Notes under the pieces: model-generated
What the model saw: the letters and a program-made list of their open reading frames with translations, nothing else
Databases searched by the model: none
Told to the model about the DNA's origin: nothing
Shown: piece after piece, positions 29,008 through 59,710 of the stretch
How the letters are laid out: every line of letters starts with the position of its first letter
How positions within the stretch are numbered: position 1 is the first letter of the stretch
Source of the DNA: Pecten maximus
Taxonomy: Eukaryota
Reading direction: 5' to 3'
DNA length: 64,000 nucleotides
NCBI RefSeq assembly: GCF_902652985.1
Contig: NC_047028.1
Span: 10,664,001 to 10,728,000 of the forward strand
Position numbers and translations under genes: made by a program

Positions 29008-29140
29008 TAAATAAAAATGAGGTGATTAATAAACTTTGCAAATGAAAAACATATTTTAAGGTATCACGCTTTTGTTGAAACCAAACAGATATGAACAATA
29101 ATGAGAATGAGATATCCTAATTTCACAATTCTGAGAATAA

Positions 29141-32098: not shown

Positions 32099-32121
32099 GG
32101 AAATTCCCACTCCTTTAAATA
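32099..32121 (-). promoter_or_regulatory. Putative promoter of TIR-BIR copy 1: TATA-like box and NF-kB site
   Basis: Minus strand reads CCGGAAG...TATTTAAA GGAGT GGGAATTTCC, then a candidate splice donor AAG|GTCAGT at 32064/32063. Confidence 0.5.
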
Positions 32122-33884: not shown

Positions 33885-35104
33885 TCAATAATTGAAGTCA
33901 ATATTATAAGTCGATGAAGTTAATGTTGATGACATTCCGATTTCAGGACTCAGGTACGTAGATGCCGTATCTGGGGATTCAGCACTACACGACGACGTCA
34001 CTTCCTTTGGACAGTGATTTCCTCCTATAGGTACAGTCAGTTTCAGAATATGTTTGAATGCCGCTTTGGATCGTTGAAAGTTTGTCACAGGAGGTACGTC
34101 TCTTCCTGTTTCTGTTGTGTTCGGCGACAGGTTACTAAAGATTTCACCAGTCATGTCCTGTGGTATAATGATGCTTAGATTACTGCTAATAGTTTGCAAG
34201 TGTCGATAAGGAAAACTATATGTGAGTTTACCGGGTATGTGGTACCCAGGCAGGTAGCCATCGTGGTTAAAGGAAGGCCTGTTTGTGTAAGAATTTGTCC
34301 CCGTGACACTATCGATACTGTCCCTCCGTCGAATACACGGAGGCAATCTTTTCTGCAATTCAGAATAAAAGTTATCCCCCCTCATATCAATATGTTTTAA
34401 TCGTTTAAAAAGTTTACTTTCTGTAAACGAACACGATGTATTTTGATGTGAAGTTGTGTCCAGAATGGTTATCCTGAAATATTTTTTGTGCTGCACCATG
34501 CTGTTAAATATATTTTCGTGAACTTTTTCTTCTGTTGAATAGTTCGGAATAAAAAACACAACATCACTTTTCTTTATGGTATTGATTTCTGCTGTAGAAG
34601 CACCTGAAAAAGAAGCAAAGAATATGCCGTAAGTCACCATGACCCGTTTGAAGTGGTTATGCCAATTACGAAAAGTTAATGCCATCTACATGGTATTTAC
34701 CTTTGACTTATGTTTAAGAAACGGCAGTGTTGTCGGATGAAGCATTCATGCAACATTAAACATATATTTATGAATATTATGAAGGTGAAATTTCATTTCC
34801 TATTGGTCTTTATATCAACAAGTTTCTTTCTTGTCACGAGGAAGCCTTTTCCTTCATATCTGACTTTGAGGACACCTTGTCTTCACAGAGTTTCAACTGA
34901 TTGATAAAGCATTTTACCTCCACCCGTTAAATCAGCAGAACAGACAACTTTAAGTGACGGTTGTGCGTAGGTCATCAGTATGTCGTACAATTTCTTAGCT
35001 GGGGAGACATCTTCATCACAGTGGCAGATGTACACTTGCTTGTCACTTCCAATGGACTTGCTATTGCCTAATGATACCAAATTTTCCACGAATGTTAAAT
35101 TCAT
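33885..35104 (-). pseudogene. Partial duplicate of the Ig-TIR receptor: only the two cytoplasmic (TIR plus tail) exons, frame intact; pseudogene or cytosolic TIR isoform
   Basis: Exons 35067-34918 and 34603-33885 are near-identical to 46089-45940 and 45625-44952. Homology stops at 35794, just before the TM exon. An in-frame ATG at 35104 would give 301 aa. Confidence 0.75.
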
Positions 35105-36019: not shown

Positions 36020-36243
36020 CTGTAAACGTGGTTATTTTCGCGGTGGGTTAATTTCACGATTTCAAAATGTAAACTATACGCATGGGGGTAATTTTCGCGA
36101 TCGATCCACCTTCGTTTGTAGTAACACTAAACAATCGAACTTGAACTTGTAAATTATACGCGCGGAGGAAATTTTCGCGAACAAAAGGAGACTCCGCTTA
36201 ATAAGCGTAAATTCCCCTCTTGCGTAAATTTCCACGTTTGCAG
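36020..36243. mobile_element. MITE with TA target duplication, downstream of TIR-BIR copy 2
   Basis: TA-CTGTAAACGTGG ... CCACGTTTGCAG-TA; same insertion site as 28780-29007. Confidence 0.85.
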
Positions 36244-36372
36244 TAAACAAAATGAGATGCTCAATAAATTTTACAAATGAAAGAATTATTAAGTACCACG
36301 CATTTGTTGAAACCAAACCGATATGAATAATAATGAGAATGAAGTATCCTTGTTTTACAATTATGAGAATAA

Positions 36373-38034
36373 CTACGACTTGGATTGTGAAGGAGGAAAT
36401 AGAAACACATTTTTATGTTTGATTGAACGATTATCCAGCTTTTTTATCATAAACGACACTACCGTTCTCTGAGATGCATGGGCTGCAGTTTGCAGAATAC
36501 TATCGATATAGTCCATGCCTTTGACAGACGTCACGTGTGCACAAGATGGTGAGAGCCACGCATGCGTTGCCATCACATTTTGACCATGCTTTATAGAGGT
36601 CAGTCCTAAACCACACGAATAACACGTAAAGGCATCACCACACCCCGTATAGCTAAATCCAGCCTCTGCTATTTCATTGATTAGCTTCTGTCGATCAAAC
36701 GAATGTGCGCTGCCTTTTGGCATTTTATCAAGGGAAAATGATTCAAATGATTTTACTCTAGCTTCAAAGGTCCTATACGTCTCATTAACAAGATGTTTGC
36801 CCTTTTGAAATGACGTTTTCGCATTCTTGATAAAATCGTCTGTCTGATTCTGCCTGACAAAAGGACACAGCTGATTGAGTGCAGCATGCGTGACCAAGGG
36901 GTTGTCATCCTGTCGCCAGCTGATCACGAATCTTCCACATGCGAAACAAGTAGTAAACAGAGGTGCCCCACTGAAGAAAAATCCTGCTTTGGCAAGTGAT
37001 TCTGTCTTTGGAACCAGATCGTTTTCATGGAATACTGGAAATGAATCATAACGCGTTTTTTCGTCGGCATAATCAGGGAATTTGATGGCATGGTTCGGTG
37101 ACTTCTCGGTAGAGATCTGGTACATTGTTTTAATCCATAACTGTCTGATGTAATCCTGATCATTAAGGCGACCGTTTAACGTGCACCCGAGAATAAACAC
37201 TACTCCTGCCCGCCGGAGAGAAGAAACGTCCATTATATTTCCACAAAGAGAAGCGAAAGCACTATCAAATTCAGTAAGGTCCATATTGGTTTTGATTGTA
37301 TCTTTGTCGTAAATTAGACTAACCGTTGTATTGGATGTACATAACATGGAACATTCGCCGCACACTTTAGTAATACCCAAAGAACTATGTTTCTGACTGT
37401 GCTTTAGAAATTCGTCCATATCTATACGAAGGACCTCGCTAATAATCTCCACAACGACACCATAAACGTTGAACAACATAAAAGGAAGATCCAAGCCATG
37501 CTGATGTAGGCTTTGTGTTACATTCGTAGCCCCAAGCAAATGACTGAAGGATGGCTGCTTGTAACGTAAATGCCGTATCAAGTGTACCTGCCATCCATCA
37601 TGTTCGGAATCTACTATCTTTGTAGATGCAAGACAGGCCAGGTCATCTTCAAGGAAAACAGAACTATTTAAACGCAAACAAACAACGTTGCTTTTCGATA
37701 CCCGACGTAAAGCTAATGATGGAAAGTATGAGAGGATGGAGTGATTTCTAAATGGAATAGACAGCATGAACAGAATTTTATCAGTATGATCTAAAAGATA
37801 TTCAAAGTTATGGAATATTCTCTGTTCTACAAAGTTGTCTTCCAGTGTGAAACATTCTATGCCGTCGTCTGTTAAGAGGGGCCTCAACTCCTTTTTGACA
37901 AACTCCAAGTCATGGTCATGATAAACGACGAATACCTTAGGCCCCCGAACGTCAGCTGGAAGAACTAAGGCGGTGCTATCCTCAGGAGAAAAACTTTCCC
38001 TGTTTACAGGTAAAGACGAAATATATGACCCCAT
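36373..38034 (-). CDS. TIR-like domain plus two BIR domains (IAP-family fusion protein), copy 2, 553 aa
   Basis: Same length and motifs as copy 1; about 23 substitutions by manual count (~96% identity); all eight Zn ligands retained. Confidence 0.9.
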   Translation of the reverse strand: MGSYISSLPVNRESFSPEDSTALVLPADVRGPKVFVVYHDHDLEFVKKELRPLLTDDGIECFTLEDNFVEQRIFHNFEYLLDHTDKILFMLSIPFRNHSILSYFPSLALRRVSKSNVVCLRLNSSVFLEDDLACLASTKIVDSEHDGWQVHLIRHLRYKQPSFSHLLGATNVTQSLHQHGLDLPFMLFNVYGVVVEIISEVLRIDMDEFLKHSQKHSSLGITKVCGECSMLCTSNTTVSLIYDKDTIKTNMDLTEFDSAFASLCGNIMDVSSLRRAGVVFILGCTLNGRLNDQDYIRQLWIKTMYQISTEKSPNHAIKFPDYADEKTRYDSFPVFHENDLVPKTESLAKAGFFFSGAPLFTTCFACGRFVISWRQDDNPLVTHAALNQLCPFVRQNQTDDFIKNAKTSFQKGKHLVNETYRTFEARVKSFESFSLDKMPKGSAHSFDRQKLINEIAEAGFSYTGCGDAFTCYSCGLGLTSIKHGQNVMATHAWLSPSCAHVTSVKGMDYIDSILQTAAHASQRTVVSFMIKKLDNRSIKHKNVFLFPPSQSKS

Positions 38035-39300
38035 AACAGCACTGGTACTGTATGCTGGTCACTAGTCCAGGTTTTCTCTGTAAAAATATAGTATAACAAT
38101 GTTTTAAACGTTTTAAACAGTGATTGGTACAATATTTGGTAGTGTTTGATATAGTGTTTGGTACAATATTTGGTAGTGTTTGATACAGTATTTGGTACAA
38201 TGTATAGTACAGTGTTTTGTAAATTGCTTGGATCATTATATAGTGCACTGTTTGCTATCATACGTGTACAATCACTTATCAAACATTTAAAGCGTTTACA
38301 TCTGCAAAATTGGCAACAAGAAATCGACTGTTATTATAGAATACTTAAATTAATTATTTATGTATTTGTGGTTCAGTTGGTCTTGATTTGCGTAAGATTG
38401 TAATACCTAATAATTTGAAAAGTATCTGTCTTCAATATCTGTTAGACACATACATTTCAAACAAGCAAAACATGTTTTCGGTTTTTGTTTTTTGGTTTTT
38501 TTCCCCCCCGTTTGTTGTTGTTGTCGTCTTTTAATTCCACTTTATATTCTACGTAGCTAACATCAGCCAAATTAAAGGGAGATGCATATGATGACCTTAA
38601 TCCATATGCTATCTGAAGAGTATTAACGCCATTCATTATTATTGTAAAAAAGAAGCTGCAGTGTCGTACAATCTCTGTTTTGAAATGCTAAATTTTATTG
38701 TATTAATCATAAAAATGTATTCAACGATACCCGGAAATTTTAATATTGTTAAAAGACGTTTATATACCAATCACAGGTCATTATTTTGTATCGAATGTTG
38801 ATCTTACCCTTGTAAAGTCTAATAATTGATTTTGATAATCGTGTTAGCGCAAACCCAAATGCAAGTTCTTGTAGAATGTCAAGCTGGGCGTCTCTTGGTA
38901 GTTTTGGTTGTTTTCATACTGCTCGCCCTACTTAAACTAATATATATCAATTTTATATATATCAATGTCCCTGAAACTCTTGTGATATGGTGTATAATGA
39001 CGATATCAGAGAGATATTTTTCGGAATTTGATTACAGGAATATAAATTATTACATTTGAAATTAGTTTTTGTGACTGGGCAAACTATATAGATGCACGGA
39101 AATATCAAACACATTTTGATGAAAATTATGTAATGCATGCATTGAAATCAGATTTTTGAAAACAATACATTTAACAAATTTTTTAGAAGCAAGAATCAGT
39201 AAAGCATAAACGCCTTAATACTAAAATTTCAGTCTCTTAATAACTAGTTTTGTTACATCACTGACCTTATTGGTTAACTCAACCACGTTTTGTGTAAACA

Positions 39301-39323
39301 GGAAATTCCCACTCCTTTAAATA
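39301..39323 (-). promoter_or_regulatory. Putative promoter of TIR-BIR copy 2: TATA-like box and NF-kB site
   Basis: Same TATTTAAAGGAGTGGGAATTTCC block as copy 1. Confidence 0.5.
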
Positions 39324-41312
39324 GAAAACATAATCACGCTTCCGGTTCGGTTGACTAAACCGGCTATTGTTAAGCTTGAATTGTTCGTCGTGTATGTAGT
39401 GTATTGATCGTCTTGGCGTATGTGTTACTACTGTAACCCTGACTGAGCGACTCGTCATGTATTTGTGTACTGTATAATTTATTATTACTTGCACAATACA
39501 CATAGTTTACCATTGACAATGCTATTAAAACCAAATTTTAGACAACTAGTTTATACCTATATCAATACAATGTAGTTACCAGATAAATCAAATTTTAGAC
39601 AACTAGTTTATACCTACGTCCATAGTTACCAGAAACACGAAATCCAGCTTCTGTCACGTTTGTAAACTACCGACATAGCTCCCCGGTTATTATGTCTATA
39701 CCATGCCTGCTTTACATTCAAAATAAACCTGACAGATATCTTAATATTGTACCGTAGCTAACATAGTCTTAAAGCTTGACAACATATACTTACTTTTTTG
39801 TAGCGATGTTCCAATCCCGATTATAATGGTATGTGTTCATCCCCTCGATTATTTGGATGCCATACACCATCATGATTAAAATAATGTTAGATATTTCACA
39901 GAAGTAGAAATGTAAGGATTAAACACGGATATTCCCTCCTTTCTCGATACAGACGTGTCACAGTCTATAGAACACAAAGGGCCTTCACGTTATGTTAATA
40001 ATTGGCAGATAAAAATGTCGATAATGCTGAATGTTAAACCAGGTGTAACAGTGTATGACACATACAGTTTGTAAACGGTGTTGCCAGTTATATATGTATA
40101 CCCACTATACCACTCCATATAGCCAGTCTCGCCTGTCCTATGGATTGCATGCATCTAAATATCTTGTGATCAAAAAATTTAAGATTATAATAGAAACGAA
40201 ATGTGAATTTTAAAATAATTTGGTTTTAATTACTTATGCTTTAGGTTAGCGAATCGTAGCAATTATTTACGATGAAACTTTGATGTTGCACTAAATACTG
40301 ATCACAATATTTTTATTTAGACATTTTTTATTTCTTTCACTTCAGCTCATTTTATGTGGTAATTTAGATTTCCCAATAAATTCGCGGGAAATGAATTTGA
40401 TGACGTAACCGGAAGCCCACATGCTATTAGAACTTGACCCGGAAAACATGCATGACGATAATAAAAACAGAAGATCATTGAACGTTATACCGGATTATTT
40501 TCGCATTTTTTGAGACACCAATGTACTAAAATACAACGGAAGGTAACACTGATTTTGTTCATTGCTATCGTATAAAGTAAAACGAACAGTTATTGCGAAA
40601 ATAGCATTTGCGTCACCTACTACTGTAGTTGGGCTAGACCTACTTTCGTTTTACAGCTTACAGATATGGTCGTATAAATAATTCATCTTCTCAACCATAG
40701 TCGATCTAATTGCTTATCAGCGGGATTGTTCTATTAAGAATATTTGTACTTCTCATGTACAGTGCATCTTTGTTTAAAATTGACTGGTCTGCGGGTCTGA
40801 TATGACTACCCTCATAATCAGCCGACCACAGGGTCACGTTACTATCGTATCCCTTAGTAAACACTTCATAATAAATGACTATGTCTGTATCTACGGCAGA
40901 TTCGTCTGTATTACTAAAATTTTCTACCTACTTGCAGAGACGTGTATATGGGACGTTGTGTCTCCATTGACTAAATACTTCTGTTTACACACAGGGACTT
41001 GATAATTAGTTACAGTCTACATGTATTTGGACCCCCCCACCCCCCCCCCCTCCCCCCTCCTAGTGTATAGCACATTTTGAGACGTTTTGGGGGGCTTGAT
41101 TAGAATTTGGCAAAAATGACATCCCGGGTGGTCAGAATTCGAAGGGGGGAGCCCTATGACTCGAGCTCATACAATTCATTGTAACCTGTCTTTGTACTCT
41201 ATGACTCATAACCTGTCACAGGTTTACTGGATATGAGTTACAGGGTAAACAGACATACATGTACATGTATCAAGTGTGTCACAGGTTATAACAGAAGAAA
41301 GAGAAAACTAAG

Positions 41313-41582: not shown

Positions 41583-44500
41583 CTGGTGCACTAATACATG
41601 TTTGATGAGTCTGCGGTATGTTCGTGTTTGTCTCCTTTGGTATACACTTGTATATTACCGGTAATGTGGAAAACTTTTAAATTTTTTAAGATTGTTCCAG
41701 CACTGGCAACCTGTCTTTCCCTTGGTTGTCATTTAGCTTAAGAAGATATTTATCAATTTAATCTCTTTCATTTGATCATATAAAAACAGTGAATATTTCC
41801 CCAAATATTAAGTGTAATTGCTTTACACATACCCGTACCTTGTATTACTGACCACGATTGATGTTTAAACGGGAATGGACTACACATTCTTATCAAATAT
41901 CTGCATTACCTAAAACACTGAATTTTTTGGGAAAAAAAGCATGCAAGATTATTTTTGAGTCAGTCAGGTTAGTAGAGAAAGTTTTACTGTATTTGACATA
42001 TTAGCCGAAGTCATGAAAATGTGAAATTAAAAAAAAAATTGGTTATTGAAGATCAGAGAAATGTCAACAACAAATTTAAAAAGAATGGAATTGGGTTTTT
42101 CTCGGTCAGTTCTGATGGCCTGTGTAAACACGTTATGAAGATATAAAGTTCATTTTACACAATTGCCTGCTTCGATTGTCTATCTTTTAAAATTAAGTTC
42201 ATCTGTGTATATTTTTATTTTTTGAGGGGTTTTGTTTTATAAATCCTTGCAACAACTTTTTAAGTCATGTAGAATATGATTCTTGACAACTTGACTACAG
42301 TAAGAATTTAGCATTCAAAATCCATTGCGCTCCACACCATATTGTTTGTTGACAGTGACATTTTCACAGTTATTACATTACTTAATTAGAATACTGTGTT
42401 ATATATTTCTTGAATCCACTCGAATATAGAAATATTTCCTTCATTTTCCAAATCTGTAATTGAAATAATTGTAGAATATACATGTATGTGTTTGCAGTAA
42501 TAAGAAAATATTTTTTATTAATATTAACATATTTGGTGCATCAATCCAAAAATACTTGTTGACATATACTGCATTACTTTTGGTCGGATTTCAATACACA
42601 GAATGTAAGATTTTATTAATCAATAGATCTGGCAACCTCACCTTCTAACAGGTCAAAGACCTTTGATATGAGACTAATTAATGAGTATTCAGAGTTTCCT
42701 CTTGCCCCACCACCGGAAGTTAGACACTGACAAGCTCTCATACAGTTGTTGACTTGAGTTTAGGAACACATTCTCAAATGACAGATGATCATATGCTAAA
42801 TTAAGGGTTGGATTTTCACTAACTTGAAGAGTTGTGCCCCTTTGTTTTCTTTCCTATACATCTTATTCTAGCAGATTGACATTCATATTTGTTTCCAATT
42901 GTTCTACACCTCATTATATACATCTGATGACATTTGAAAGTGGGTGAAAAATGGAATAGGTTATTGTATTGAGTCACATTGACTTCATTTCTCCCAATTC
43001 ATCCAGTTCAAGAAATCTGGAAAATCCATTTTAGTTTCCATGTAGGTAAGATTTTAACATTTTATTGTTATGGTTGTTTTGCTTTCTATTGTTGGGGCAG
43101 AGGGCATATTCATATAAATCAGATATATAACTCCTATATAACATGGTTTACACTTGGTTATTTGTATACTTAAAATTTGTTTCCTTTCTTTTGTTAATAT
43201 CTCTGTGGTTATAACTTCTAGTCTCTCACATGAGTCTTTACACTTCCTTCTAGTAAATATCTTCAAAAGTTTCTTCTTATTTCTTTCTGTTTCCAGTTTC
43301 CTTTTGGTTAAAAAATTGTCATATTTAGTGGATTTTGAGAATTGGTTGATTTTCAAAATTTGCATTTGTTTTGCAATACATATACATCAATATTTTGCAT
43401 GCCTCTGTAACATATATATATAGAAATGTGCTGCTTCTTCCTTTTTAACAATAATTTCAATAAAATCTTTAGTTTGGTTAACACTTCCTATAATGTTGTT
43501 GAACATTTTGAATTGGTGGATCTGTCAGATCAGCACATATTCAGCACAGTAGTCCAAGATAACATTCCGGTTTAATTGTTTTTCTTCTGTATGGCTAACT
43601 TTATGATCTTTTCAAACTTGGTCTTGGGCATTATTTGGCTGGTCTGATTGTTGTTTAAGAATCTTGAGGCACTATGCTGGCTCCCAAGGAGGAGGGGTGG
43701 GACACAAAAGGACAATTCAACAATTTAATAGCACATGCATTCTGTAGTGATGGTCCCAAATCTTGAATGCTACCAGGTTTGTTTTTTTAAAAGGAAGGAC
43801 CTTTACCTTCATTAAAGACCACTGGCGCCAGGCGTGCAAAAAAACTTGAAAATCTTCAACTGAATAACCTTGAGGCCAAGATACCTTGTATTGGGCCTGT
43901 AGTATGCTGATGAAGTGATACAAAATTCAAGGTCACAGCCATCAAAAATGTTTAAATGTTTAAACCCTTTTTTTCTCAGTATCAAAAAAAGGTCCAGAGA
44001 AGAAGGTGATTCATACAGGCCCATATGGCCTCTTATTTGGTTGCTGCACAATTCCTTAAGTACTCTTTCATACTCGGATGTCAAAGGTCAATGTCACTAT
44101 TTCTGTCAAATGAAAACCAGTTGCTTGGAATACGACATGTAGCTTAAGATTTGAAAGACAAATGTTAAAGATAATGTAACTATAGATAGAAAAATACTGC
44201 AGATATCAATGAAAGACCATACTTTCCCTACATGAAAAAAGTATTAGAACCCAATGCTACTGGCATGGTCACACAATACTTCTTTTATATATTCTTTACA
44301 TGGATGGATAACGGCAGCATTTTAAATACTTTAATATATAAATACTTATTATCGGTTAGCTTGTAATAATAATAATGTTTAGGTCAAACAAAACAAATTA
44401 TGATGTTTTCCCGTCTCGTATCAATTTGAAAAAAACAAACGCACTCTCATTAAGTACACATTTTATCTAATAGATTTGGACAAAATTAATCGTGTGCCTT

Positions 44501-44951
44501 ATATGATAACTATCAAAGACAAAATTGTATCACTCTACATCCAATAGCTGTCGCATTAGTATCTGCCTTGATAAATAGGCCAGAAACAATATTTATCATT
44601 GGTATGTCTATATAGTATATTGTAGAGTAGCCTATTCCTGTATTAAATCAATAATGATTACTCTTTTTGTCGGATGTGTAAATATTGAACTATGGTTAGT
44701 CAGAAGAGTGTATACATTCCAAAACAATAATATTAATGTATTTCTGTTTATAAAATTACAATATCACTTGAGCAAATACCACATGGACTGCTAGGTTTGA
44801 TACTGCAGTTTCATTTCTTCAAATGTTCACTGCCTTGTTGATACTTGAATCATGAAATATATGATCATATCAAATACCCCAAATATGGATGGAATCGTCA
44901 GTGTTTTCAATAATAGAAGTCAATATTATAAGTCGATGAAGTTAATGTTGA

Positions 44952-47900
44952 TCACATTCCAATTTCAGGACTCAGGTACGTAGATGCCGTATCTGGGGAT
45001 TCAGCACTACATGGCGACGTAACTTCCTTTGGACAGTAATTTCCTCCTATAGGTACAGTCAGTTTCAGAATATGTTTGAATGCCGCTTTGGATCGCTGAA
45101 AGTTTGTCACAGGAGATACGTCACTTCCTGTTTCTGTTGTGTTCGGCGACAGGTTACTACAGATTTCACCAGTCATGTCCTGTGGTATAATGATGCTTAT
45201 ATTACTGCTACAAGTTTGCAAGTGTCTATAGGGAAAACTATATGTGAGTTTACCGGGTATGTGGTACCCAGGCAGGTAGCCATCGTGGTTAAAGGAAGGC
45301 CTGTTTGTGTAAGAATTTGTCCCCGTGACACTATCGATACTGTCCCTCCGTCGAATACACGGAGGCAATCTTTTCTGCAATTCAGAAAAAAAGTTATCCC
45401 GCCTCATATCAATATGTTTTAATCGTTTAAAAAGTTTACTTTCTGTAAACGAACACGATGTATTTTGATGTGTATTTGTGTCCAGAATGGTTATCCTGAA
45501 ATAATTTTTGTGCTGCACCATGCTGTTAAATATATTTTCGTGAACTTTTTCTTCTACTGAATAGTTCGGAATAAAAAACACAACATCACTGTTCTTTATG
45601 GTATTGATTTCTGCAGTAGAAGCACCTGAAAAAGAAGCAAAGAACATGCCGTAAGTCACCATGACCCGTTTGAAGTGGTTATGCCAATTACGAAAAGTTA
45701 ATGCCATCTACATGGTATTTACCTTTGACTTATGTTTAAGAAACGGCAGTGTTGTCGGATGAAGCATTCATGCAACATTATACATATATTTATGAATATT
45801 ATGAAGGTGAAATTTCATTTCCTATTGGTCTTGATATCAACAAGTTTTTTTCTTGTCACGAGGAAGCCTTTTCCTTCATATCTGACTTTGAGGACACCTT
45901 GTCTTCACAGAGTTTCAACTGATTGATAAAGCATTTTACCTCCACCCGTTAAATCAGCAGAACAGACAACTTTAAGTGACGGTTGTGCGTAGGTCATCAG
46001 TATGTCGTACAATTTCTTAGCTGGGGAGACATCTTCATCACAGTGGCAGATGTACACTTGCTTGTCACTTCCAATGGACTTGCTATTGCCTAATGATACC
46101 AAATTTTCCACGAATGTTAAATTCATCGTTTTATAATGCAGTAATCTTTAAATTGTACAATGAGTTGCTGTTGGTTTTCAAATCTAGATGTTAAATTCAA
46201 TATGAATAAATCCAAAGATTATTTATGAAGAAATAAAAATACATCAGAAATATGAATATATCTTTTTACAAAACTTCAAGGTCAGAAACATCCTGAATAA
46301 AATAAACATTGAAATCATGTGTAAATACATTCACTAAATTCGAAGGTTTGACATAATTACAATTTCAAAATGCAAAGTAAAATAAGGTCAGATATTCATT
46401 TTGCACAACTCAAATTAAGATATTGAGTGTTTGATAAAACTTAAAGCTACGAAACCATTAACACTGTAATGTGTTTGTTCCGCTTGCCCATTTTGTCCCC
46501 TTATCTGAATTTCCAATCTTTGGCCCCTGGAGTAATTGACGTGTTAACAAAAATAAAATACCCGTGTGATGTATAGGAATTTGAAGTATATTTTGGTAAA
46601 TATATGGCATGTATCTATTGCTAATTTCAAATTTAAATATTTGCGCTATCTCAGCAAGGAACTGCCTTTAGTTGGAATTATGAGAAAGATGAATGTCAAC
46701 AAAGGTAGTTTTAATGATTGCTTGTTTTTTGTTTGATGTGTTATCTTAACCCCATTTTATTATTTATTTATTTTTCTGAATTGCAATACTCTCGATTAAT
46801 GAAGAATGCATCCAAATATGAAAACTTACCTGTTATCGACATTACGAAGGTCATCTCTGACAACACTGTGACATGCAGCTTGCTCCTGATTAATGCAGTG
46901 ACTAACAGAAAACCCAAAATAGTCACGACCGAAAGGGGTAACAATACAGTCTTTAGAAGGTACGTCACAGTGCTGTCCTGGTCTGATGATCTGTACTGCA
47001 CCTCTGTGTGACAGAACAGAACAGACATTTAGACACACCAGCGACATCGTATACACCAAATGTTAGAAAATGCATACAATAACGTTGAAATAAATACCTA
47101 ATGAACACAAGCATACATTATATAACATAATCTTTCCGTCCTAAATGATTCTTTTAGGATGAAAACTACACACCACATATACATAATTTTCAGATAATTT
47201 CTAGAAACACAAACCAAATGTGATCAGATACGATGAACGTTAAAGAACACCGTCAAGTTTGGACCGTAAATATCGTAAATTATATGATTACGACTTATAA
47301 AAATACAACGAAGATAAAATCATCCTCATTGAATTGTATATAAACAACGTCCTGGAGGTGGTGGTCAGATCTTCCAACAGACTAGAGGAATACTAATTGG
47401 AACACACTGTGACCTCAGTTAGCTGTCTTGTTCGTGTTTTCATACGATTGAAGACCTCATCGGAATATGTAAGAAAGGCATTACAAAATCCTTCCCTTTT
47501 ACCAATACATAATTACATTGACGGCATATTGTACTTAAATAGCAAACATTCCATTGACCATGCCGATCAGATATACTCTGTAGAAACTGAATTAAAATAC
47601 GATACAGACTATTTGACATCAGCTGCCTATACCGATCTCTACTGACAATGTAAGCAACAGCTGAGCTGTGTGATCAATGTGGCTATTAAAATTTCCTTAT
47701 TGTTAAGTTTCGTGACAGGAGAAACCAATACGATTTCAAGAAATGCATTTTAGTAAGATCATGTAGAAGTTTAATGGTCTGCATAATGATTTCATTTAGA
47801 AATATTCTATTTCCTCATTCAATACGACGTTGTTGATGCTGGTTGATATGCTTATTGCCTGTTTCATCATCCTCAACCTTTATAACTTTCACTTGAAATT

Positions 47901-50900
47901 TGACTTAACCCGTATTTGACCTAAATTTGTATGGCGGTTTTCGTCGATGAGAAGACGCTTAATTTTCCGGAATTCCTTGCCGTTTCCTCCTTTTAAGTTT
48001 TCGGGAGTTTTCATGCAAATTTTTATTTTTGTTAATATCTTGCTCTAATTTACTTTGAATTTGAAATATAGTTTCATTATTATGTCAGAATTCTTTGTTC
48101 TTGAAATCGAGCAAGCCCTTATGTATGCTTATTTCTGATCTACATACATGAGGGAGTCTTTATAACTTTCTGTTACTGCGAGCAACATACAAGTTCACCA
48201 TTGAAATACGTAAATGTATTGTCCACTGACGTTAAGTATTAAAAATACAAATTATAATTACCACTCAGGACTGTGAAGTTCCTCGACACTTTCTCTGCCG
48301 TTCCTTTGTAGCATGCTGTTGCTGTGATGGATACCACTACACCCGGTTTTGCCACGAGAGATACAAATCCTCTGCAGATCCTCGGCACAGATCTATCGCT
48401 GTGAATGTAATAAGAACGCCAGAGTTATCTCCCTTGCACGTGCTTTATTTATTTTTTCAGATGGACGTTATTTTATAGCCACAAGTACACGGACTATTCA
48501 GAACATAATTTGATTAGGTGGTAGGATGGCACTGTGATGACACACTTCGCGATGGGTTTTCTCCGGGAACTCTGGTTTCCTCCCACAGTAAGACCCCACG
48601 CGATTCCACAAGAGCTAAGAAGAGTTATCAATATTGGTTGATATAACTTATTTCGAAATTGTTGCATTATAAATAAAGTCATTACATAATACTATGAGAA
48701 AGCAGTATTTACAACGATAACACATATTCAAATCATCACAAAAAATATCAAAAAATAAAATTCAATTCCAGTTCAACTGTTATTCATTTATTTCCGACAA
48801 AACATATTGTTGCATGCGTTTGCATGTTATAGGAACAAAGAAAAATATTGTTTATATTATATATATAATGTGGAGTAATTTACCTTGCACAGCCCTGTAT
48901 TACTACAGGCGGAACACGAGTTGTCCCTATGTTGTGCCCATCTTTATGATATATAATGTTGATATTTCTTTCTGCAGCGTCACATCCAAAGTTGACATGA
49001 TAAGAAAACGTGACATTCTGTTGATCAGCCTTTACATAAGAGGTATCACTAGACAACTTGACTTCCGGCTTGTCAAAACTTTTTCTACAATCTGAAGGAT
49101 GTCAAATACAATAGACAAATATACATTACTGTGAAAGCATAGGGTCATGAAGTAAATTATCTGAAAAATATTCAACTGAAATTGACCTGCAAATCATCTG
49201 AAAAAAAGATCAATTTTAAAGGAAGAAATTTTCAGGTAAATTTCAGATCAATTTAATGTCAGTTTGACCTGATAAAATCTGAAAATGAATGTGAAATGAA
49301 GTGTGAAGTTTCCGTGCCAATTTTAGGTAAATTGCAGGTCAAATTCAGGTCAATTTCTTGATATGAATCGACTATTTCGACCTGAAAATGTTCACATGCA
49401 ATAAACATGAATTAGAACTAAATGATTTAGAATGGAGCTAAAACATGAATATTCTATTTGTTAATATCTCCTACAATAAAACTATGTCGAAATAAAAGAA
49501 AATGAAAATTATTCAATGTTGTTATTGTATCTAAAGGCCGGCTACAGCTGTTCGTTAAATTTCTCAATTGATATAGTTGGACATATTATTCCATGTTCTC
49601 TCGTCCGACAAAGAAAAATATATTTTCGAAATAAAGAATCTCATGCAGAATGTTTCTTCCTTTTTGTGATAAGCGAACGCTTTTGTAGACAGCACTGGAT
49701 ACATTGTTATTGAACACCCATTTCCGAACCTATGACCTGTTCTTCTACAATAACAGATTTTAGCCAATGACAAAAGCTGTTACATCATCGACAATGTGTT
49801 ATACATGTATAACATTAATAAACATTGCAATATATAATCTCCATCAATACAATACTTACCAATTGCTGTTAGATGAACAGTCTGGTTACCATTACTAGTG
49901 ATACACCTATACAAGCCCATTTTGTGTCTACCTATTTGATCAAATGATATCGTCTCGTTGGTATACGGGAGTAGTTTCCATGTCTTTGTATCCCGTGAGA
50001 AATACCATTTCCGAGTGGTACCGTTATATCTATTGTCACAGCAGGGAATGTATATCGTCTCAAACTTTGGGCTACCTAACTGTACCTCCATCAATGGACA
50101 AACAGGCTTGAACTGACCATCTGAAACCAGTAAAACAAAATAATGGGGCACATGATAAGTCAAATAATAAAATAACGGAGTTTTTACACTACACTGTATA
50201 TCATTTGTATCTGAAAGGAACCAATAAGGAGTGCTGGCTAAAAGAAGGAGGATATGTGTATTCCAAATTATATGGACAAAATACAAAAGGAGAGATATAG
50301 ATCTTTGTTGTGTAACAAAACTATCGATTCAGTGCTGAACTGAAATCCATACCCGTAAGAATAGTCAAAGATAACATAGGTGAGACTGTGGTTAGTCATC
50401 ATTTTAATGTATCTAACAAACAACGTATGTACGATTTCACAGGTGAAGCGGATATGGGGCTTCAAGTAGTTGAATACCAATGTAAACAGGCCTGCATTTT
50501 CTCTGCACATCTCAGGTTTCGTCATTGTAAAATTTTCTAATACACGTGCAAATTCAAGTTCAAATTCATTTTATTCTCTTTTCAAATGATTTATAGAGAA
50601 AACATATCACAAAATGTCTTAAGGTCAAATGAAAGGAGTAGATTAGTCATTTCAGGTCAAGAAATTGAACTGAATTTTCATGTCGATTTCGGGTCGATAT
50701 TTTGTCAGGTCAAATTCACCTTAAGACATTTTGCCTTTGTTTATAGAGTTAAATACTTATTAAACACGTGATTAGTCATATGATACATAAAACAGAATAC
50801 ATATTACACTATTGAAAGTCTATTTTGTCAAAAAAAAAACCAAACAAGCTACTAATAATAATCACTGTTAAACCACTTACCGGCCGTACTTGTTTTACAA

Positions 50901-51019
50901 TAATCCCTCTCTGGAATGGTTACACAACTGTCTTCCCGGGCACACAATGGTTGAGTAAGGGGTATAGTACAACATAGTGTTATCCCCCTCAACAACACGA
51001 GGATTTCCTGGGGTTTCAT
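44952..51019 (-). CDS. IL-1-receptor-like type I membrane protein: signal peptide, 2 Ig-like domains, TM, TIR, Ser/Thr-rich tail; 7 coding exons, 580 aa
   Basis: Phase-compatible GT-AG exons: 51019-50881 (MKPQEILVLLRGITLCCTIPLTQPLCAREDSC...); 50120-49860 (Ig: IYIPCC..KWYF..MGLYRC..TVHLTAI); 49091-48884 and 48398-48262 (second Ig-like); 47003-46830 (TM: VLLPLSVVTILGFLLVTALI-RSK); 46089-45940 (KQVYICHCDEDVSPAKKLYDIL..LKVVCSADLTGG); 45625-44952 (..IKKSDVVFFIPNYS..LKHIDMRRDNFFSELQKRL plus tail). Total 1743 nt. Probable 5'UTR exon 52300-52191 and a first exon ending at 52714. Confidence 0.85.
48520..48690 (+). mobile_element. V-domain-type SINE fragment in a receptor intron
   Basis: GGGTTTTCTCCGGGAACTCTGGTTTCCTCCCACAGTAAGACCCCACGC. 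Confidence 0.65.
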
Positions 51020-51227
51020 CACAGACAGTGATCAAAGTAGTGCCGCAATAATTATTACACCTGACGAGAAAAATTGATAGCAATATAAACTTCTTGTACC
51101 ACACTGCATAGCATTAGTACTGCGTTGTGTCCATTTGATTTTGAATCTGATCCAGACAGACAGCTAGACGGTATGTACTCTGGCCATCAAAAGCAACCAT
51201 GTGTTATAGGTATGCATATATATTAAC

Positions 51228-51877: not shown

Positions 51878-53171
51878 CTATAAACTGTGTATACTTCGGA
51901 GTAGTGCGACATTAATCATGGCAGACCTACGTATATGTGGTCGCATTCACTAGAGAATTGATTACAATTTTTTTTGACAACTTGGCTTGAAATGAAAGCT
52001 AATTTAAAAGATAAAGGGAAATTAATACATCAAAATATTGGAATTTTAGCCGTATACATCGAAAATTGATAAAAATGTAGATAAGTGAAATATATATATA
52101 CAAAAAAATAAATAAATAAAATTAAAAAAAAAAGTAAAATTAAATTGAAAAAAAAATTAAATCATTGATTTTTATCCTGAAATACCTCACCAATATTTGA
52201 TACACATTTCACATGATAAAGAGTCTATGTCAAGATGTCAATGTCAAACAGAATTCACGAGATTTATACGGTATTGACAAAAATGATATTCAGTGGAAGG
52301 CTGTAAGGAAAGCATTTCACAAAAGATTACATTAACACTGAGGATTGTGAATGTAAACCTTATAAGAAAAAGCAAATAAAAGTATAAAAACGTCTCAAAG
52401 TCATAATACATTCAACAGTAGGCAGGACTTTAATGAGTGTATGTTGAGAGGGCCATTCATGTCACACATTTCTAGACCACATACGCCCAAATTTTGAATT
52501 GGTATAGTGTGATTCCTTATAAAATGAGATTGGTTATAATATACCTACCTAGATCAGATTGAGGAGTGGTGTATGTGACGTAAGCTTTTAAGTTCGCTAA
52601 TTGGATTTCAGCTGACAATCATATACAATGTACATGTACCATAATTATACGTTTATAAACGTTGTGTCATCAATATAATAACTGTACGTCACTACATGTC
52701 GATATATTCTTACCTGTTTTGTTTTCATTGTAGTTGGTAATCGCCATTTTCTGTTATAGGTTGTTTACTTCCTGGTAATTGAATCCAGATGAGGTTATCT
52801 CCCTTGTACCAAGAGTGGCGTTGTATTCTCCAATCTGAGTGACATAATACAGCCGAGACGTCCCTCACTTATACGGGACTGATGGAGACCAAAAGATAGA
52901 TAACTCGTCTATACTACATGTATGCTAGATATGAATGCAATATCATTTCTTACTAGGGTAAACTATTGCAGAAACGGGAATAAATTTTCTTGCACTTTAG
53001 CTAGAATCAGTTAATATTACGTTATTTATAGGAACATTAGATATGTCATAATTTGGCTTCAAAATAAAAGAATAGAAGATAATAGTATTGCTTCAAAAAG
53101 CTATAAATCATCAAAGCGTATTATTAATAATATTATTATTATAATTAAATTCATCATTGAATAATTATAAA

Positions 53172-54938
53172 ATAATTTAATTAATATATCGCAAAAAAAT
53201 CTAATAACCACCATAATAAAATCATTGGTCCAGTCCTGATGCGGACAGTGGTCATATACATGTATATATAAATTTGATTGACACATTGACTTCTTTATGT
53301 TTACATAAATGTAACGATTCCTGTTTATTGGGGTTTTTAAGTGAACCAACACGGACGGAAATGAAATGATTGTGAAGATAACAACAAGAAATATCTTTAA
53401 AAAAGATAAACGGCATAGTTTTAATGCTGGTGGTTATAATGTAAAACTGCTGGTGAAATAAATTAACGAACTCATTAATAAATGCGCAGTTTCAGCACGG
53501 ATAACAAAATTATATCAGTTTGAATCATTTTTGGTGATAATAAGACTGCATTTGAATCAGGAATATGATTTTATTAATGTGCCATTTGAATAGATACATC
53601 CACTTATTCAGCTTGCTTTCAATCTTAATTTTGTTTCGTCTTTAACTGCATGTCTTCATTTTGCATTTACCGCTACATTGACCAATCACATACTCCATCA
53701 TGACCAGTAACGCCACCTGTCGCGTCATATCCGGGAACAAAAGAAAATTATACGGCTATGCCGAAAAAGCTTCAAACATCCTAAAAAACGCACCCTTTTC
53801 GAGGACGGTCCTTGTCGCGGACGGGTAGAATCAGGATACTTATGTTTTATTTTTCTAAGGTTTCTGAATGTATCAACAGAAATGAATGAACATCATCCAA
53901 AGACAAGTATAAACGATTTTTTTTTTAGAAAAGATGACAAAACCTTTGAAACATCCAAAAACACCTTATTCTAGGACGAACTTGCTGGGAACAGCTAAAT
54001 ATAAAAAAATATAATGTTAAACATGTATATGTCTGAAGATTTAAAAGTTTATCAACACGAAAACAAGAGTTTATTATCTTTAGACAAGTTTAATGATTTT
54101 GAAATAGAAAAGATAGCAACACAAAATTTGTAACGTCCTGGAAAAACACATCGTTTCAGGACGGTCGTAACGGGGGGACAGCCTGAATCAGGAATATTAT
54201 ATAGTTTTATATTTCAGAGATTTCAAGGGATATTCCACAGCTTAAAATGTCTTATTGTTCTGTAGTTTTTAAATTAATCAAAATACCATTTCTGTGGTCA
54301 AATTGAGCGATTGATTGGACAAACGAAATTGTTGAGAATACCTGTGTCCAGTATATACTTAAGCCGTCTAAATATAACGCCTCGGGGAATAAAGAACTGA
54401 ATCTCACTGATTCATAGATTTTTAAAACATTTTTTTTTTAGTTTTTTTTTTTTTAGTTTTGGGTGAATACAAAGAGAGTATACTTTTCACTAATACTTTC
54501 TGTTTTGATTGTTATATCAATGCTGCGCTAGGCTGATTTTCTACCAAATATATAGTGTACACCAATATTATATGCAGTTCAGCTAATACAAGGTTACCAG
54601 TCTTCAAGTAATTAGGACCACATTAATGTTTCTTAATTGGTCTAGTTAAATCTATTAGGAATTTCCACAAATTAGGTATGGACCGCAATAAATCCTGGGA
54701 GGGATTGAGGCGCCTCGGTATATTTTTCTATGAAATGTAATAAACAGAATGTCTGAAAGTATCTTCAGTCATACCATATATATCACTCACGTGGCTAATA
54801 GTTTACTATTTTTCACTCATGCTACGCTCGCGAAAAATATAAAAATATAGCCACATTCGTGAAATATATTTGGTTTTACTGAAGACACTGTTAGATATTC
54901 TCTATACATTTGTAACTCCAAATGCGCTTAAAAATATA
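53172..54938. repeat. ~1.8-kb direct repeat, copy 1 (non-coding, TE-derived composite)
   Basis: Closely matches 57282-59066 along its length. Confidence 0.92.
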
Positions 54939-56801
54939 GGAATGTAAGTGAACCCCAAATATTATTTTCAATAGTCGCAGTTTATTACATTTAATTTCTA
55001 TAATATAAACCAACATCTCAATGCTTATATAATGTTTGTATTAACTTAATCAGGAAGTTATAATTTCATTTGAATAAAATATGGTTTCTTAAAACTAATG
55101 AGTAAGTAAACAAATGAAATTAACCAGCAGTTTACTATTTTGGATCCCTGCTATGAAATATAAATACTCGTCTATGTCATGATATCGTTGATTAAGATAC
55201 TAATAGACATATATTGTTTCATTTCAAATTAATTTCTATTACTTTCGGAAAGATACATACTTCTCCCTGTATTGAAATGAGTATACTGGACAAAAACAGT
55301 AACAGTACCTAACAATCCACATTGTCTTCTGAATTTTAAATATTAACTACTATTTCTCTCATATCTCGCCATGTTGGATAGAGTTTGCCCATGTAAGATA
55401 GCTATGTAAGATAAATCTAAATCTATCTTACATAGCATTTCACGCGCGCGGATTAATCTGCGTTCAAGGGGGACAACTCTCACAACGTCGTCTGCTTGTG
55501 TTCACATCCGACAGTCCTTATCGTCGGTGTCGGTTTTGAAACGTTGGACTTAACTATAAAAATACATACATTCTTAGATAAATATATATCATATCAGCAG
55601 TAAATCAATAGGGCTACACGGTTAAACGATTAGACATTTCATCTGAGCGAACATATAACTCCGTTACTGTAACAAACAGTTAGACTACGCCTACAGGCCT
55701 GTTGTAACAGTACAGTACAATACAGACTTGCCTACCCGACAGAATTGTCATTTGTCATTAAAAACATGTAAACACACACAATCACCTGGCAATGACAGGA
55801 AGTAAAATAAAAGCCATACATAAAAAAAATATGAAAAAGAAAATGTCAAACGTCACAACCTATGAAATGATTCCGTTTGCGTCAGCAGGGGGCCCTGGAA
55901 TTTGTTTACTCTACTGTACTGTCAGTAACTGTTAGGCCTACTCAGTAACCTGTGTATTTGGAAGTTGGGAATTGGCTCTTAAATGAACGAACACTCGGTA
56001 AAAATGACACCCCTCGATGTTCATATAAAAATATTTATTTCAATTGTAACTCAGAGTCTATATTTGTGTAGAGTAACCATGAAAACTAACTGCCATCCTA
56101 ACCTTTCAATATGATCATCGTTAGCCTATCGACTGACCTACCTTCGTCATTCCATCAAGACAACCGGTTAAACACATATAATCCTATGTCACAGAAAAGA
56201 TCGAATACTCGTATAGAGTCACTGTTCGCTGGTTCACACACGAAGTTGCCAAAATCACAGTGAATTTAAAATTACCAGCCACGAAACATCGCCGCGTCAT
56301 GGCGATCGAGATCGACATCACTCTCAATATCCTTGAACTATGAATGGAATTCCAATGACAGTCGTGACGTCATGCAGTGACGTAGTATCTTATAAAAAAA
56401 AATTTGACTTGACATTTAAAAGTACAGTGTGTTCTGTGAAATGATTAAATATGTCGAGGTACAAATCAAATTATATGTGAAGTTGGAAAACTCATTTCAG
56501 CGTTGGCTTTCAGTATTGTTGATAGAACTTCTTTTTCTCGGATGTTGACAATTTGATCACGGCCACGTAAAAGTCGGTCAAGTTACGGTAATTTTTATCG
56601 GCGAATTGTTCATTCGTTCATCACTTAACCACAAAATGAATGAAATTTGTGTGCAAACATAGTTTGCCAAAATAGGGTATGATCTTTCAGAATATTACAA
56701 GTATATTTAGTAAAAACGTCAAATAAAGAAATTAAAAAATTGAAGAAAATGGATGGCTGAGGGACACTTTCGCCAGAAATTCGGTAATGATATCAGAGAA
56801 A

Positions 56802-56956: not shown

Positions 56957-57281
56957 ATAATCTTTTGTTTTGATTGTAAAGAAACATATAAAATATATTT
57001 CTTTCTCGAAGAAAATAAATAAATACAAACAGTGATATAAATGTCAGTCATAATGATGTGTGTATATATATACTTCCATACTATGCAAATATTCAGATAT
57101 GATTATAATTACTTGAAAGGAAATAGTATGCAATGGATGCTTATACATGTATGTATCAGAGTTTTGAATATGTGATATGAAAAAATGGATGAAGGTAATC
57201 AGGAACGAATGTATTGTCAAATTGTGTCATGTGTATGTATTTTTTGTTTGAAAACTGAATAAAAATATGTTATAAAAAAAA

Positions 57282-59066
57282 TTAATTTAATTAATATATC
57301 GCAAAAAATTATAATAACCACCATAATAAAATCATTGGTCCAGTCCTGATGCAGACAGTGGTCATATACATGTACATGTATTTATAAATTTGATTGACAC
57401 ATTGACTTCTTTATGTTTACATAAATGTAACGATTCCTGTTTATTGGGGTTTTTAAGTGAACCAACACGGACGGAAATGAAATGATTGTGAAGATAACAA
57501 CAACAAGAAATATCTTTAAAAAAGATAAACGGCATAGTTTTAATGCTGGCGGTTATAATGTAAAACTGCTGGTGAAATAAATTAACGAACTCATTAATAA
57601 ATGCGCAGTTTCAGCACGGATAACAAAATTATATCAGTTTGAATCATTTTTGGTGATAATAAGACTGCATTTGAATCAGGGATATGATTTTATTAATGTG
57701 CCATTTGAATAGATACATCCACTTATTCAGCTTGCTTTCAATCTTAATTTTGTTTCGTCTTTAACTGCATGTCTGCATTTTGCATTTACCGCTACATTGA
57801 CCAATCACATACTCCATCTTGACCAGTAACGCCACCTGTCGCATCATATCCGGGAACAAAAGAAAATTATACGGCTATGCCGAAAAAGCTTCAAACATCC
57901 TAAAAAACGCACCCTTTTCGAGGACGTTCCTTGTCGCGGACGGGTAGAATCAGGATACTAATGTTTTATTTTTCTAAGGTTTCTGAATGTATCAACAGAA
58001 ATGAATGAACATCATCCAAAGACAAGTATAAAAGTATATTTTTTTTTAGAAAAGATGACAAAACCTTTGAAACATCCAAAAACACACCTTATTCTAGGAC
58101 GAACCTGCTGGGAACAGCTAAATACCAAAAATATAATGTTAAACATGTATATCTCTGAAGATTTAAAAGTTAATCAACACGAAAACAAGAGTTTATTATC
58201 TTTAGACACGTTTAATGATTTGGAAATAGAAAAGATAACAACACAAAATTTGTAACGTCCTGGAAAAAACACATCGTTTCAGGACGGTCGTAACGGGGGG
58301 ACAGCCTGAATCAAGAATATTATATAGTTTTATATTTCAGAGATTTCAAGGGATATTCCACAGGTTAAAATGTCTTATTGTTCTATAGTTTTTAAATTAA
58401 TAAAAATACCATCTCTGTGGTAAAATTGAGCGATTGTTGGACAAACGAAATTGTTGAGAATAGCCTTGTCCAGTATATACTTAAGCCGTCGAAATATAAC
58501 GCCTCGGGAATAAAGAACTGAATTTCACTGATTCATAGATTTTTAAAACATTTTTTTGTTTTTTTTTTTGTTTTTTTTTAGTTTTTGGTGAATACACAGA
58601 GTGTATACTTTTCACTAATAATTTCTGTTTTGATTGTTATATCAATGCTGCGCTAGGCTGATTTTCTACCAAATATATAATGTACACCAATATTATATGC
58701 AGTTCAGCTAATACAAGGTTACAAGTCTTGACGTAATTAGGACCACATGAATATTTCTTAATTGGTCTAGTTAAATATATTAGGAATTTCCACAAATTAG
58801 ATATGGACGACAATAAATCCTGGGAGGGATTGAGGCGCCTCGGTATATTTTTCTATGAAATGTAATAAACAGAATGTCTGAAAGTATCTTCAGTAATACC
58901 ATATATATCACTCATGTGGCTGATAGTTTATTATTTTTCACTCATGCTACGCACTCTCGAAAATTATAAAAATATAGCCACATTCGTGAAATATATTTTG
59001 TTTTACCGAAGACACTGTTAGATATCCTCTATATATTTGTAACTCCAAATGCGCTTTAAAATATAG
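57282..59066. repeat. ~1.8-kb direct repeat, copy 2
   Basis: Closely matches 53172-54938. Confidence 0.92.
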
Positions 59067-59259
59067 ATACAATATACAATACAATGCAAAATTATAAATT
59101 ATAGTGTAATATGCATCACAATTACATTTTAGCTTTTTATACCGAAAACAGGTGTAATTGATGTAAAATTAATTAGTATCTTATTCTTCTGAACGGTCTC
59201 TTTAGACGGCTGAGAGATGAACTTGTGTTGACCCAGACAACGATATCTATTACACATAC

Positions 59260-59710
59260 TATTAATACATATCACCAGAACTGGACATACGATATATATT
59301 ACACATTAATTATAATGTAATTCTTAGACTGGACATACGACATATACTACACATACTATTGATATATACCACTTGGACTGGACATACGACATATACTACA
59401 CATAATATTAATATATACGACTTGAACTAGACATACGATATATACTGTACTACACATAATATCAATGTATACCACTTGAACTAGACATACGATATAAACT
59501 ACACACACTATTAATGCATACCACTTGAACTGGTCATACGTTATATACTACACATAATATTAATATATACCACTTGGACTAAGCATACGATATATACTAC
59601 ATTTTATATTAATATATACCACTTAAACTGGACATACGACATATACTACACATAACATTAGTATATACCACTTGGACTAAACATACAATTTAAACTACCC
59701 ATAATATTAA
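59260..59710. repeat. ~49-bp tandem repeat, about 9 copies
   Basis: Unit CTGGACATACGACATATACTACACATAATATTAATATATACCACTTGGA; units start at 59329, 59378 and 59427. Confidence 0.9.

Follow-up and report, generated by a model that had tools for sequence, protein, structure and literature searches.

The window analyzed here is a stretch of 64,000 nt from the genome of the scallop Pecten maximus (contig NC_047028.1, positions 10,664,001 to 10,728,000), which corresponds to 10.66-10.73 Mb of chromosome 14 (C14). Positions are those of the window unless given in Mb, and literature is cited by PMC number. On the minus strand of the window lies LOC117342033, a real, spliced scallop gene that is already annotated but has no name. 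It consists of seven exons with GT..AG ends throughout, intron phases of 1,1,2,1,1,1 and a single open frame of 580 amino acids (aa). A sequence-only reading of the window had proposed this structure for a hidden IL-1-receptor-like gene. The structure was borne out by the splice sites, by the frame and by the identity of the reconstruction, letter for letter, to RefSeq 'uncharacterized protein LOC117342033 [Pecten maximus]', the one match in a protein search with the last exon. Since the RefSeq annotation exists the gene is not hidden, and it is unremarkable if taken purely as a gene model.

All six junctions, including the one from the transmembrane exon to the first TIR exon, are present in assembled contigs of the four runs examined (X3, X5, X18 and X9). 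These runs come from four studies and are 4 of the 21 runs listed as containing the gene; X3 is recorded as RNA, two others are presumed to be RNA and one is of unrecorded type. Single contigs in X3 and X9 span the entire coding region. The contigs indicate presence, not expression level. The sequence-only reading had placed most weight on junctions 46830/46089 and 45940/45625; both are joined in contigs of all four runs, and the transmembrane exon is therefore not separate from the TIR exons. An alternative acceptor at 47001 breaks the frame, and another at 50210 keeps the frame but is used by no contig. No study of LOC117342033 was found in the literature searched, which excluded subscription journals, and five accessions of the gene and its orthologues are named by no paper there. 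The features are collected in Table 1.

Table 1. Features of LOC117342033 and its neighborhood (window positions unless given as aa).
Feature	Position	Strand	Content
Exon 1, coding part	51019-50881	-	ATG at 51019; exon 1 including the leader end is 50881..51060; aa 1-46
Exon 1, product	aa 1-46		predicted signal peptide and a short segment rich in Cys; 4/4 orthologues share the hydrophobic N-terminus and a Cys-Cys
Exon 2	50120-49860	-	probable first immunoglobulin (Ig) domain, aa 47-133; C73/C74, W85, Y117-x-C119
Exon 3	49091-48884	-	first half of the putative, atypical second Ig-like domain, aa 134-202; strands in a low-confidence model
Exon 4	48398-48262	-	second half of the putative second Ig-like domain, downstream of the phase-2 intron, aa 203-248; invariant ITxTACY motif
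Exon 5	47003-46830	-	stalk, transmembrane helix at about aa 268-287, juxtamembrane segment
Exon 6	46089-45940	-	start of the degenerate TIR-like domain, beta-A to BB loop
Exon 7, coding part	45625-44952	-	remaining TIR-like domain to about aa 446, then a 134-aa tail
3' untranslated region, end approximate	44364..44951	-	contigs of X5 and X18 reach 44364 and 44411
Upstream leader exon, 3' part only	52714..52754	-	joint 51060/52714 in one X9 contig only, with 41 letters on the short side
Partial duplicate	33885..35067	-	exons 6 and 7 only (34918-35067, 33885-34603); open frame; tail 15 aa longer
TIR-like/BIR genes, two copies	36373-38034, 29141-30802	-	single open reading frame (ORF) of about 552 aa, start MGSYIS

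There is fair evidence that the first extracellular domain is an Ig domain. It has the Ig-type Cys-Trp-Tyr-x-Cys pattern, and six Ig proteins, all of which carry Pfam Ig domains, match the protein only within aa 80-165 (E of 7e-10 to 8e-4). A profile search of the PDB gave 15 matches overall (E of 0.045-1.3), five of which are weak matches to Ig proteins on aa 76-139, including CEACAM1, DIP and otk. A Pfam scan of the 580-aa protein gave no match over the cut-off, Ig included. The second domain may be Ig-like on the basis of a low-confidence AlphaFold2 model, in which it has seven predicted strands with a pLDDT of 38-58. The canonical Ig Cys pair and Trp are missing, and five other Cys are invariant in the orthologues. 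Foldseek retrieved tandem beta-sandwich proteins with this model, whose quality is poor. The two predicted sandwiches lie within about 200 residues and are followed by a clear, single transmembrane helix, with a hydrophobicity peak at aa 269-287 (Kyte-Doolittle 2.56) and a model helix at aa 261-298. Five N-glycosylation sequons precede this helix.

The cytoplasmic domain is probably a TIR domain. Pfam TIR_2 is the sole family match of the isolated domain (E=0.0019, 19.1 bits where the cut-off is 28), and it occurs in two of the four orthologous domains. Ten of the 15 PDB profile matches are to the TIRAP TIR and fall on the cytoplasmic domain, with the region from beta-A to the BB loop aligned at an E of about 0.04. 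When the whole protein was searched with Atlas language-model features, IL-1R-family clusters filled all seven rows shown, the top one at 0.90 with 189 of 256 features. SEFIR gave no Pfam match in the isolated domain. By eye, the acidic residue E384 lies near the position of the NADase helix C Glu and is E in three orthologues and D in one, with the register unsure. Pfam scans of the eight single ORF pieces found nothing relevant, and a whole-protein phmmer search of the PDB returned chance DHFR rows only.

Taken together, an Ig-Ig-transmembrane-TIR architecture is highly likely, with the second Ig and the TIR resting on weak signals that agree. The sequence-only reading had given all four parts as seen; the transmembrane segment and the first Ig are fairly supported, whereas the second Ig and the TIR are weaker than it stated and nothing passes a Pfam cut-off. 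Since the protein is under every Pfam cut-off, Pfam-based surveys of TIR proteins would miss it, and counts of IL-1R-like genes in invertebrates are likely too low.

The TIR-like domain has lost the three motifs that mark signaling TIR domains. Box 1, YDVFISY-like elsewhere, reads QVYICH, TVFICH, KVHIAH and KVCILH in the four orthologues and is nearer the TIRAP form YDVCVCH. In Box 2 the RDxxPG motif is replaced by ADLTGG, YKLTGK, GDFTGG and CDSKGT, so that the Arg and the Pro are absent from all four; when the BB loop ADLTGGG is aligned to RDATPGG of TIRAP, a Gly stands where TIRAP has the Pro. The last helix region has no Trp in any of the four, so the FW of Box 3 is lost as well. TIR groups that use MyD88 are marked by the RDxxPG of Box 2 and the FW of Box 3 (PMC7075850), and loss of the BB-loop Pro abolishes TLR4 signaling (PMC8635717). 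Altered TIRs also occur in vertebrate IL-1R-family proteins that have two Ig domains or a long tail (DIGIRR, SIGIRR, AcPb and IL-1RAPL), and these either fail to activate NF-kB or are inhibitors of it (PMC3705552). By analogy with these proteins, the motif loss suggests that the LOC117342033 protein might be a regulatory or accessory chain.

The protein is likely a fast-evolving cell-surface immune receptor. A HMMER search of 1.84 billion representative sequences retrieved 11 proteins: the protein itself, three scallop orthologues, the six Ig proteins described above and one low-complexity match. The orthologues are from Argopecten irradians, Ylistrum balloti (LOC132558739) and Mizuhopecten yessoensis (LOC110454715) and align end to end with 42-47% identity; their records are titled 'uncharacterized' or 'Ig-like domain-containing', and those shown carry no TIR or receptor name. 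The same search found no orthologue outside scallops, and no relative in oysters or mussels at E < 0.001. A search of the genome with exon 2 alone as the query found no paralogue. Between Pecten and Argopecten the TIR-like domain is the best-conserved part (60% identity vs 38-51% elsewhere); exon 1 has 49%, the two ectodomain modules 51% and 46%, and the tail 39%. In the four scallop genera, 44 of the 140 columns of the TIR-like domain are invariant, as are 12 cysteines in the ectodomain of the mature protein and the Ser/Thr ladder ESPDTAxT with which the tail ends. Among the coding differences listed between contigs, 19 of 26 are non-synonymous. An LxVP motif in the tail was dropped as a lead; one of the four orthologues is without it and its context is not canonical.

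The window also contains a tandem duplication (28623-32967 vs 35872-40162 with 93.8% identity and 33338-35800 vs 44364-46798 with 96.5%). It yielded two copies of a TIR-like/BIR gene and a copy of receptor exons 6 and 7 without transmembrane or Ig exons. This partial duplicate has an in-frame ATG in the intron sequence directly upstream and could therefore make a soluble, TIR-only protein. Contigs of X1 and X16 cross the new junction near 35800-35872 without a mismatch; these two appear to belong to a single data set, which may be that of the source sample. The pN/pS between the receptor gene and the partial copy is 0.63, against 0.26 between the TIR-like/BIR copies. Together with the predominance of non-synonymous differences among contigs, this would fit either fast evolution or a relaxed copy.

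The TIR-like/BIR proteins combine a weak TIR_2 match (E 0.07) with two strong BIR domains. Their start is myristoylation-like. Contigs cover the genes and link them to an upstream exon. The genes lie 7-15 kb downstream of the receptor gene on the same strand. Their product is possibly a membrane-anchored TIR-IAP adaptor, going by these predicted features. No literature on TIR-BIR or BIR-TIR proteins was found, and the accessible parts of two papers on bivalve IAPs contain no mention of them.

Further observations concern the rest of the window and the 5' end of the gene. Minus-strand exons with DM10 and EF-hand domains at about 18450-23400 belong to an EFHC-type gene. Tandem repeat arrays occur at 5224-6650, 13826-14730 and 59228-59710, and a 1.8-kb direct duplication (53169-54939 vs 57279-59066, 95% identity) lies upstream of the receptor gene. 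Two upstream ORFs begin in the leader exon. One has 20 codons, is in frame with the gene, has a strong context and stops 12 nt ahead of the main ATG (one contig); such an ORF may dampen translation of the receptor. Two contig variants were seen. A 1-nt deletion in exon 6 at 46027, found in one X18 contig, would truncate the protein ahead of most of the TIR. At 44953, one X5 contig reads past the stop as the duplicate copy does and is a mosaic of both versions. Each may be an allele or a contig artefact.

The genome has further TIR receptor genes. A canonical-looking Ig-transmembrane-TIR gene is present on the minus strand of C19 at 15.91-15.92 Mb (L040, L069), away from the C14 linkage group, and retains intact YDVFISY, KDFVPG and FW motifs. 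It is the obvious candidate for a signaling chain of IL-1anc, the published invertebrate IL-1-like cytokines considered below. Four EGF-transmembrane-TIR genes on C4 and C18 (L027, L029, L030, L032/L033) form a supported clade in a tree of 28 scallop TIR rows. This tree contains scallop rows only, without vertebrate, MyD88 or SARM rows, and leaves out two of 18 single-exon loci that are without the anchor motif. The four receptor orthologues form a clade in it with support of 100/100; the stem of this clade measures 6.45 changes per site, and the clade has no supported neighbor. To judge by eye from the translations, two related genes on C9 (L036-L039) have leucine-rich repeats, a Roc/COR-like region and several TIR-like exons.

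LOC117342033, the four EGF-TIR genes and the C19 gene have a common layout of a transmembrane exon and two TIR exons (TIRa and TIRb) with phases 1,1,1. The 1,1,1 pattern was rejected as proof of IL-1R ancestry; since the EGF-TIR and C19 genes have it too, the layout is a molluscan receptor cassette that does not prove descent from an IL-1R. The rejection rests as well on the BB-loop intron of a TIR gene in a STING-like cluster and on intron positions that differ by a codon. The phase-2 intron of the second Ig-like domain may resemble that of vertebrate IL-1R genes; a literature search turned up no paper with the intron phases of the latter. A parallel origin of invertebrate Ig-TIR proteins has been favored (PMC2858798, PMC5094078, PMC7075850), and the case rested partly on the absence of an invertebrate IL-1 (PMC2858798). 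This argument is now challenged because IL-1anc has been published (PMC13736523).

The IL-1anc cytokines are reported across invertebrates, with three in P. maximus, and the same paper infers an ancestral IL-1/IL-1R/GCC2/ESD locus for which chromosome 14 of P. maximus is the conserved linkage group (PMC13736523). It states that ligand-receptor binding is still to be demonstrated. LOC117342033 is absent from its supplements, figure-only supplements being outside the search. The sequence-only reading had called the receptor an orphan of a mostly orphan class; LOC117342033 is still an orphan, but the statement on the class is outdated by the published candidate ligands (PMC13736523).

Exons matching IL-1anc.1 (minus strand) and IL-1anc.2 (plus strand) are at 31.51-31.55 Mb of C14, divergent and about 22 kb apart. 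The IL-1anc.3 motif had no match, perhaps since it spans an intron. All five ESD matches are on C14 at 0.70-0.76 Mb, and one of four GRIP domain matches is on C14 at 21.68 Mb and resembles GCC2. The IL-1anc.1 and IL-1anc.2 exons, ESD and the GCC2-like gene lie 10-21 Mb from the receptor gene. Motif filters, which could miss divergent exons, picked out no Ig-TIR gene either in 120 kb surrounding the IL-1anc genes or in the 30 kb that flank the window. When 150 of 157 candidates were scored, 10 TIR_2 matches were found on C14, seven in long single frames of 340-1283 aa and three in the STING-like cluster. None of the 10 looked like an Ig-TIR gene; the seven were not inspected singly, and this search missed LOC117342033 itself. 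The cluster at C14:38.60-38.67 Mb (L022, L023, L025) has TIR exons beside weak matches to the STING ligand-binding domain (E 0.006) and likely consists of TIR-STING-like genes. The location of the receptor gene on the same chromosome as the IL-1anc genes is a modest lead. The protein is a candidate receptor chain for the IL-1anc cytokines that might dampen rather than drive their signal.

The explanation that we tentatively prefer, and hold to be possible rather than probable, is that LOC117342033 encodes an IL-1-receptor-like chain, most likely regulatory or accessory, that joins cytokine-receptor complexes without itself recruiting MyD88. It would place two predicted Ig-type domains outside the cell and a degenerate predicted TIR with a long tail inside, connected by one transmembrane helix. 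The ectodomain and that of a second chain, for example the C19 Ig-TIR protein, would jointly contact a beta-trefoil cytokine, probably IL-1anc. The altered BB loop would compete for or block TIR assemblies, as in DIGIRR and SIGIRR, and the S-P-x-T-x-x-T-x-x-S ladder of the tail may be a docking site controlled by kinases.

Several results weigh against this explanation. When scored against a profile of 23 other scallop TIRs, the four receptors were not among the top nine rows, all nine being shuffles out of 200, and hhalign gave a TIR probability of 6.6%. The AlphaFold2 models are poor (pLDDT 35 and 42, the latter being the TIR model), and fold searches with them pointed to no one family. The TIR model has no Foldseek match under an E of 0.001, and in a structure search its best matches are tRNA-synthetase anticodon domains (Z 6.8). 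The ectodomain alone scores 0.84 in the Atlas feature search, a lead-level score, in clusters that mix cytokine-receptor Ig/FN3 types. The linkage on C14 is loose, with 20.8 Mb between the receptor gene and the IL-1anc exons; as C14 is 4.2% of the genome, one of two Ig-TIR genes would be on it by chance in about 8 of 100 cases, and more if other such genes were missed. Finally, having two Ig domains does not mark the protein as an inhibitor, because invertebrate putative IL-1Rs usually have two (PMC13736523).

A different history, which is doubtful but deserves weight, is that Ig exons were fused independently onto the molluscan transmembrane-TIR cassette. The receptor would then not descend from an IL-1R, would bind another ligand, either a host protein or a surface molecule of a microbe, and would evolve fast under pressure from pathogens. 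The occurrence of the cassette in the EGF-TIR and C19 genes suggests that it has taken different ectodomains, and the published preference for parallel origins (PMC2858798, PMC5094078, PMC7075850) points the same way. The low identity of the orthologues, their restriction to scallops in the HMMER search and the predominance of non-synonymous differences are also consistent with it. However, its argument from a missing invertebrate IL-1 is challenged by IL-1anc, the gene is on the IL-1anc linkage group, and the language-model features lead to IL-1R clusters.

It is also unlikely, if not negligibly so, that the protein is an active receptor with a TIR that diverged in step with a lineage-specific adaptor other than standard MyD88. 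The adjoining TIR-like/BIR-BIR protein is a possible adaptor and would connect the cytokine directly with IAP-type control of cell death or ubiquitin signaling. In favor of an active role, the TIR is the most conserved domain, with its invariant columns, and two expressed single-ORF genes with a weak TIR_2 and two BIR domains are close by on the same strand. The set of TIR adaptors in the oyster is much expanded (PMC4346834). Adjacency is the sole link between the two proteins, however, and the TIR of the TIR-like/BIR protein has no affinity to the receptor TIR (-0.7 bits, on a long separate branch).

That the cytoplasmic domain is a SEFIR or other alpha/beta fold, belonging to an IL-17-receptor-like or unrelated cytokine receptor, seems very unlikely. 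The fold searches fail to separate these folds; in the structure search above, 10 of 50 rows are TIR (Z 4.5-5.5) and one SEFIR structure has a Z of 4.8. The ectodomain features resemble class I cytokine receptors. However, the isolated domain gives Pfam TIR_2 and no SEFIR, the TIRAP alignment spans beta-A through the BB loop, and the first domain has the Ig pattern. A genome search for SEFIR found nine other matches and none at the gene, which is weak evidence since the TIR_2 genome search missed the gene too. It is most improbable that the gene is decaying under relaxed selection without a present function, as the pN/pS of 0.63 and the exon 6 deletion might suggest, since four genera have preserved the open frame, the tail motif and the 12 cysteines of the ectodomain, spliced transcripts are found in all four runs and the copy without a transmembrane exon may be the unconstrained one.

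A bolder version of the preferred explanation, which is distinctly unlikely as a whole, is that the gene is the scallop descendant of the IL-1-linked receptor of the cnidarian-bilaterian ancestor. It would bind IL-1anc with its two Ig domains and would have turned independently into a DIGIRR-like brake or a MyD88-independent transducer. If true, this would be the first IL-1 ligand-receptor pair in a protostome and would provide a direct test of whether the Ig-TIR proteins of invertebrates and the IL-1 receptors of vertebrates have a common ancestry. The standing question is whether the former are genuine IL-1 receptors or look-alikes. To address it, P. maximus has three candidate ligands in the literature and two or more candidate chains, a canonical one on C19 and a motif-poor one on C14, the chromosome of the ligands. 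An inhibitory role of the latter chain would mean that decoy-type control of IL-1 signaling goes back further, or evolved more times, than has been assumed.

Compared with known systems, the predicted protein resembles the altered members of the vertebrate family. DIGIRR of teleosts has two Ig domains, the number predicted here, and an altered TIR, and SIGIRR/IL-1R8, IL-1RAcPb and IL-1RAPL have an altered TIR and a long C-terminal tail, which is 95-140 aa in SIGIRR and AcPb and 134 aa here (PMC3705552). The substitutions differ, however, and there is no sequence sign of orthology to the DIGIRR and SIGIRR types, so this is a likeness only. The vertebrate IL-1R family, with its group 4 TIRs, has the same domain order and provides the nearest language-model clusters, but its members have one or three Ig domains (DIGIRR excepted) against the two predicted here, and Box 1, RDxxPG and FW are absent here (PMC7075850). 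Group 4 TIRs are reported in jawed vertebrates only (PMC7075850). In P. maximus itself, the C19 gene also has Ig exons, a transmembrane exon and a phase-1 intron that interrupts the TIR at the BB loop. It differs in having probably three Ig domains, a second TIR intron, Boxes 1-3 and a location on another chromosome, and no special kinship is detectable. The Ig-TIR proteins of cnidarians, amphioxus and oyster likewise have an Ig ectodomain, one transmembrane segment and a TIR-like domain, but they were found by Pfam TIR and Ig matches, whereas here both are under the cut-off, the boxes are lost and a 134-aa tail is present (PMC5094078, PMC2858798, PMC4346834). By its predicted domains, the LOC117342033 protein is a new, highly divergent member of this invertebrate Ig-TIR class, set apart from vertebrate IL-1 receptors by its motifs.

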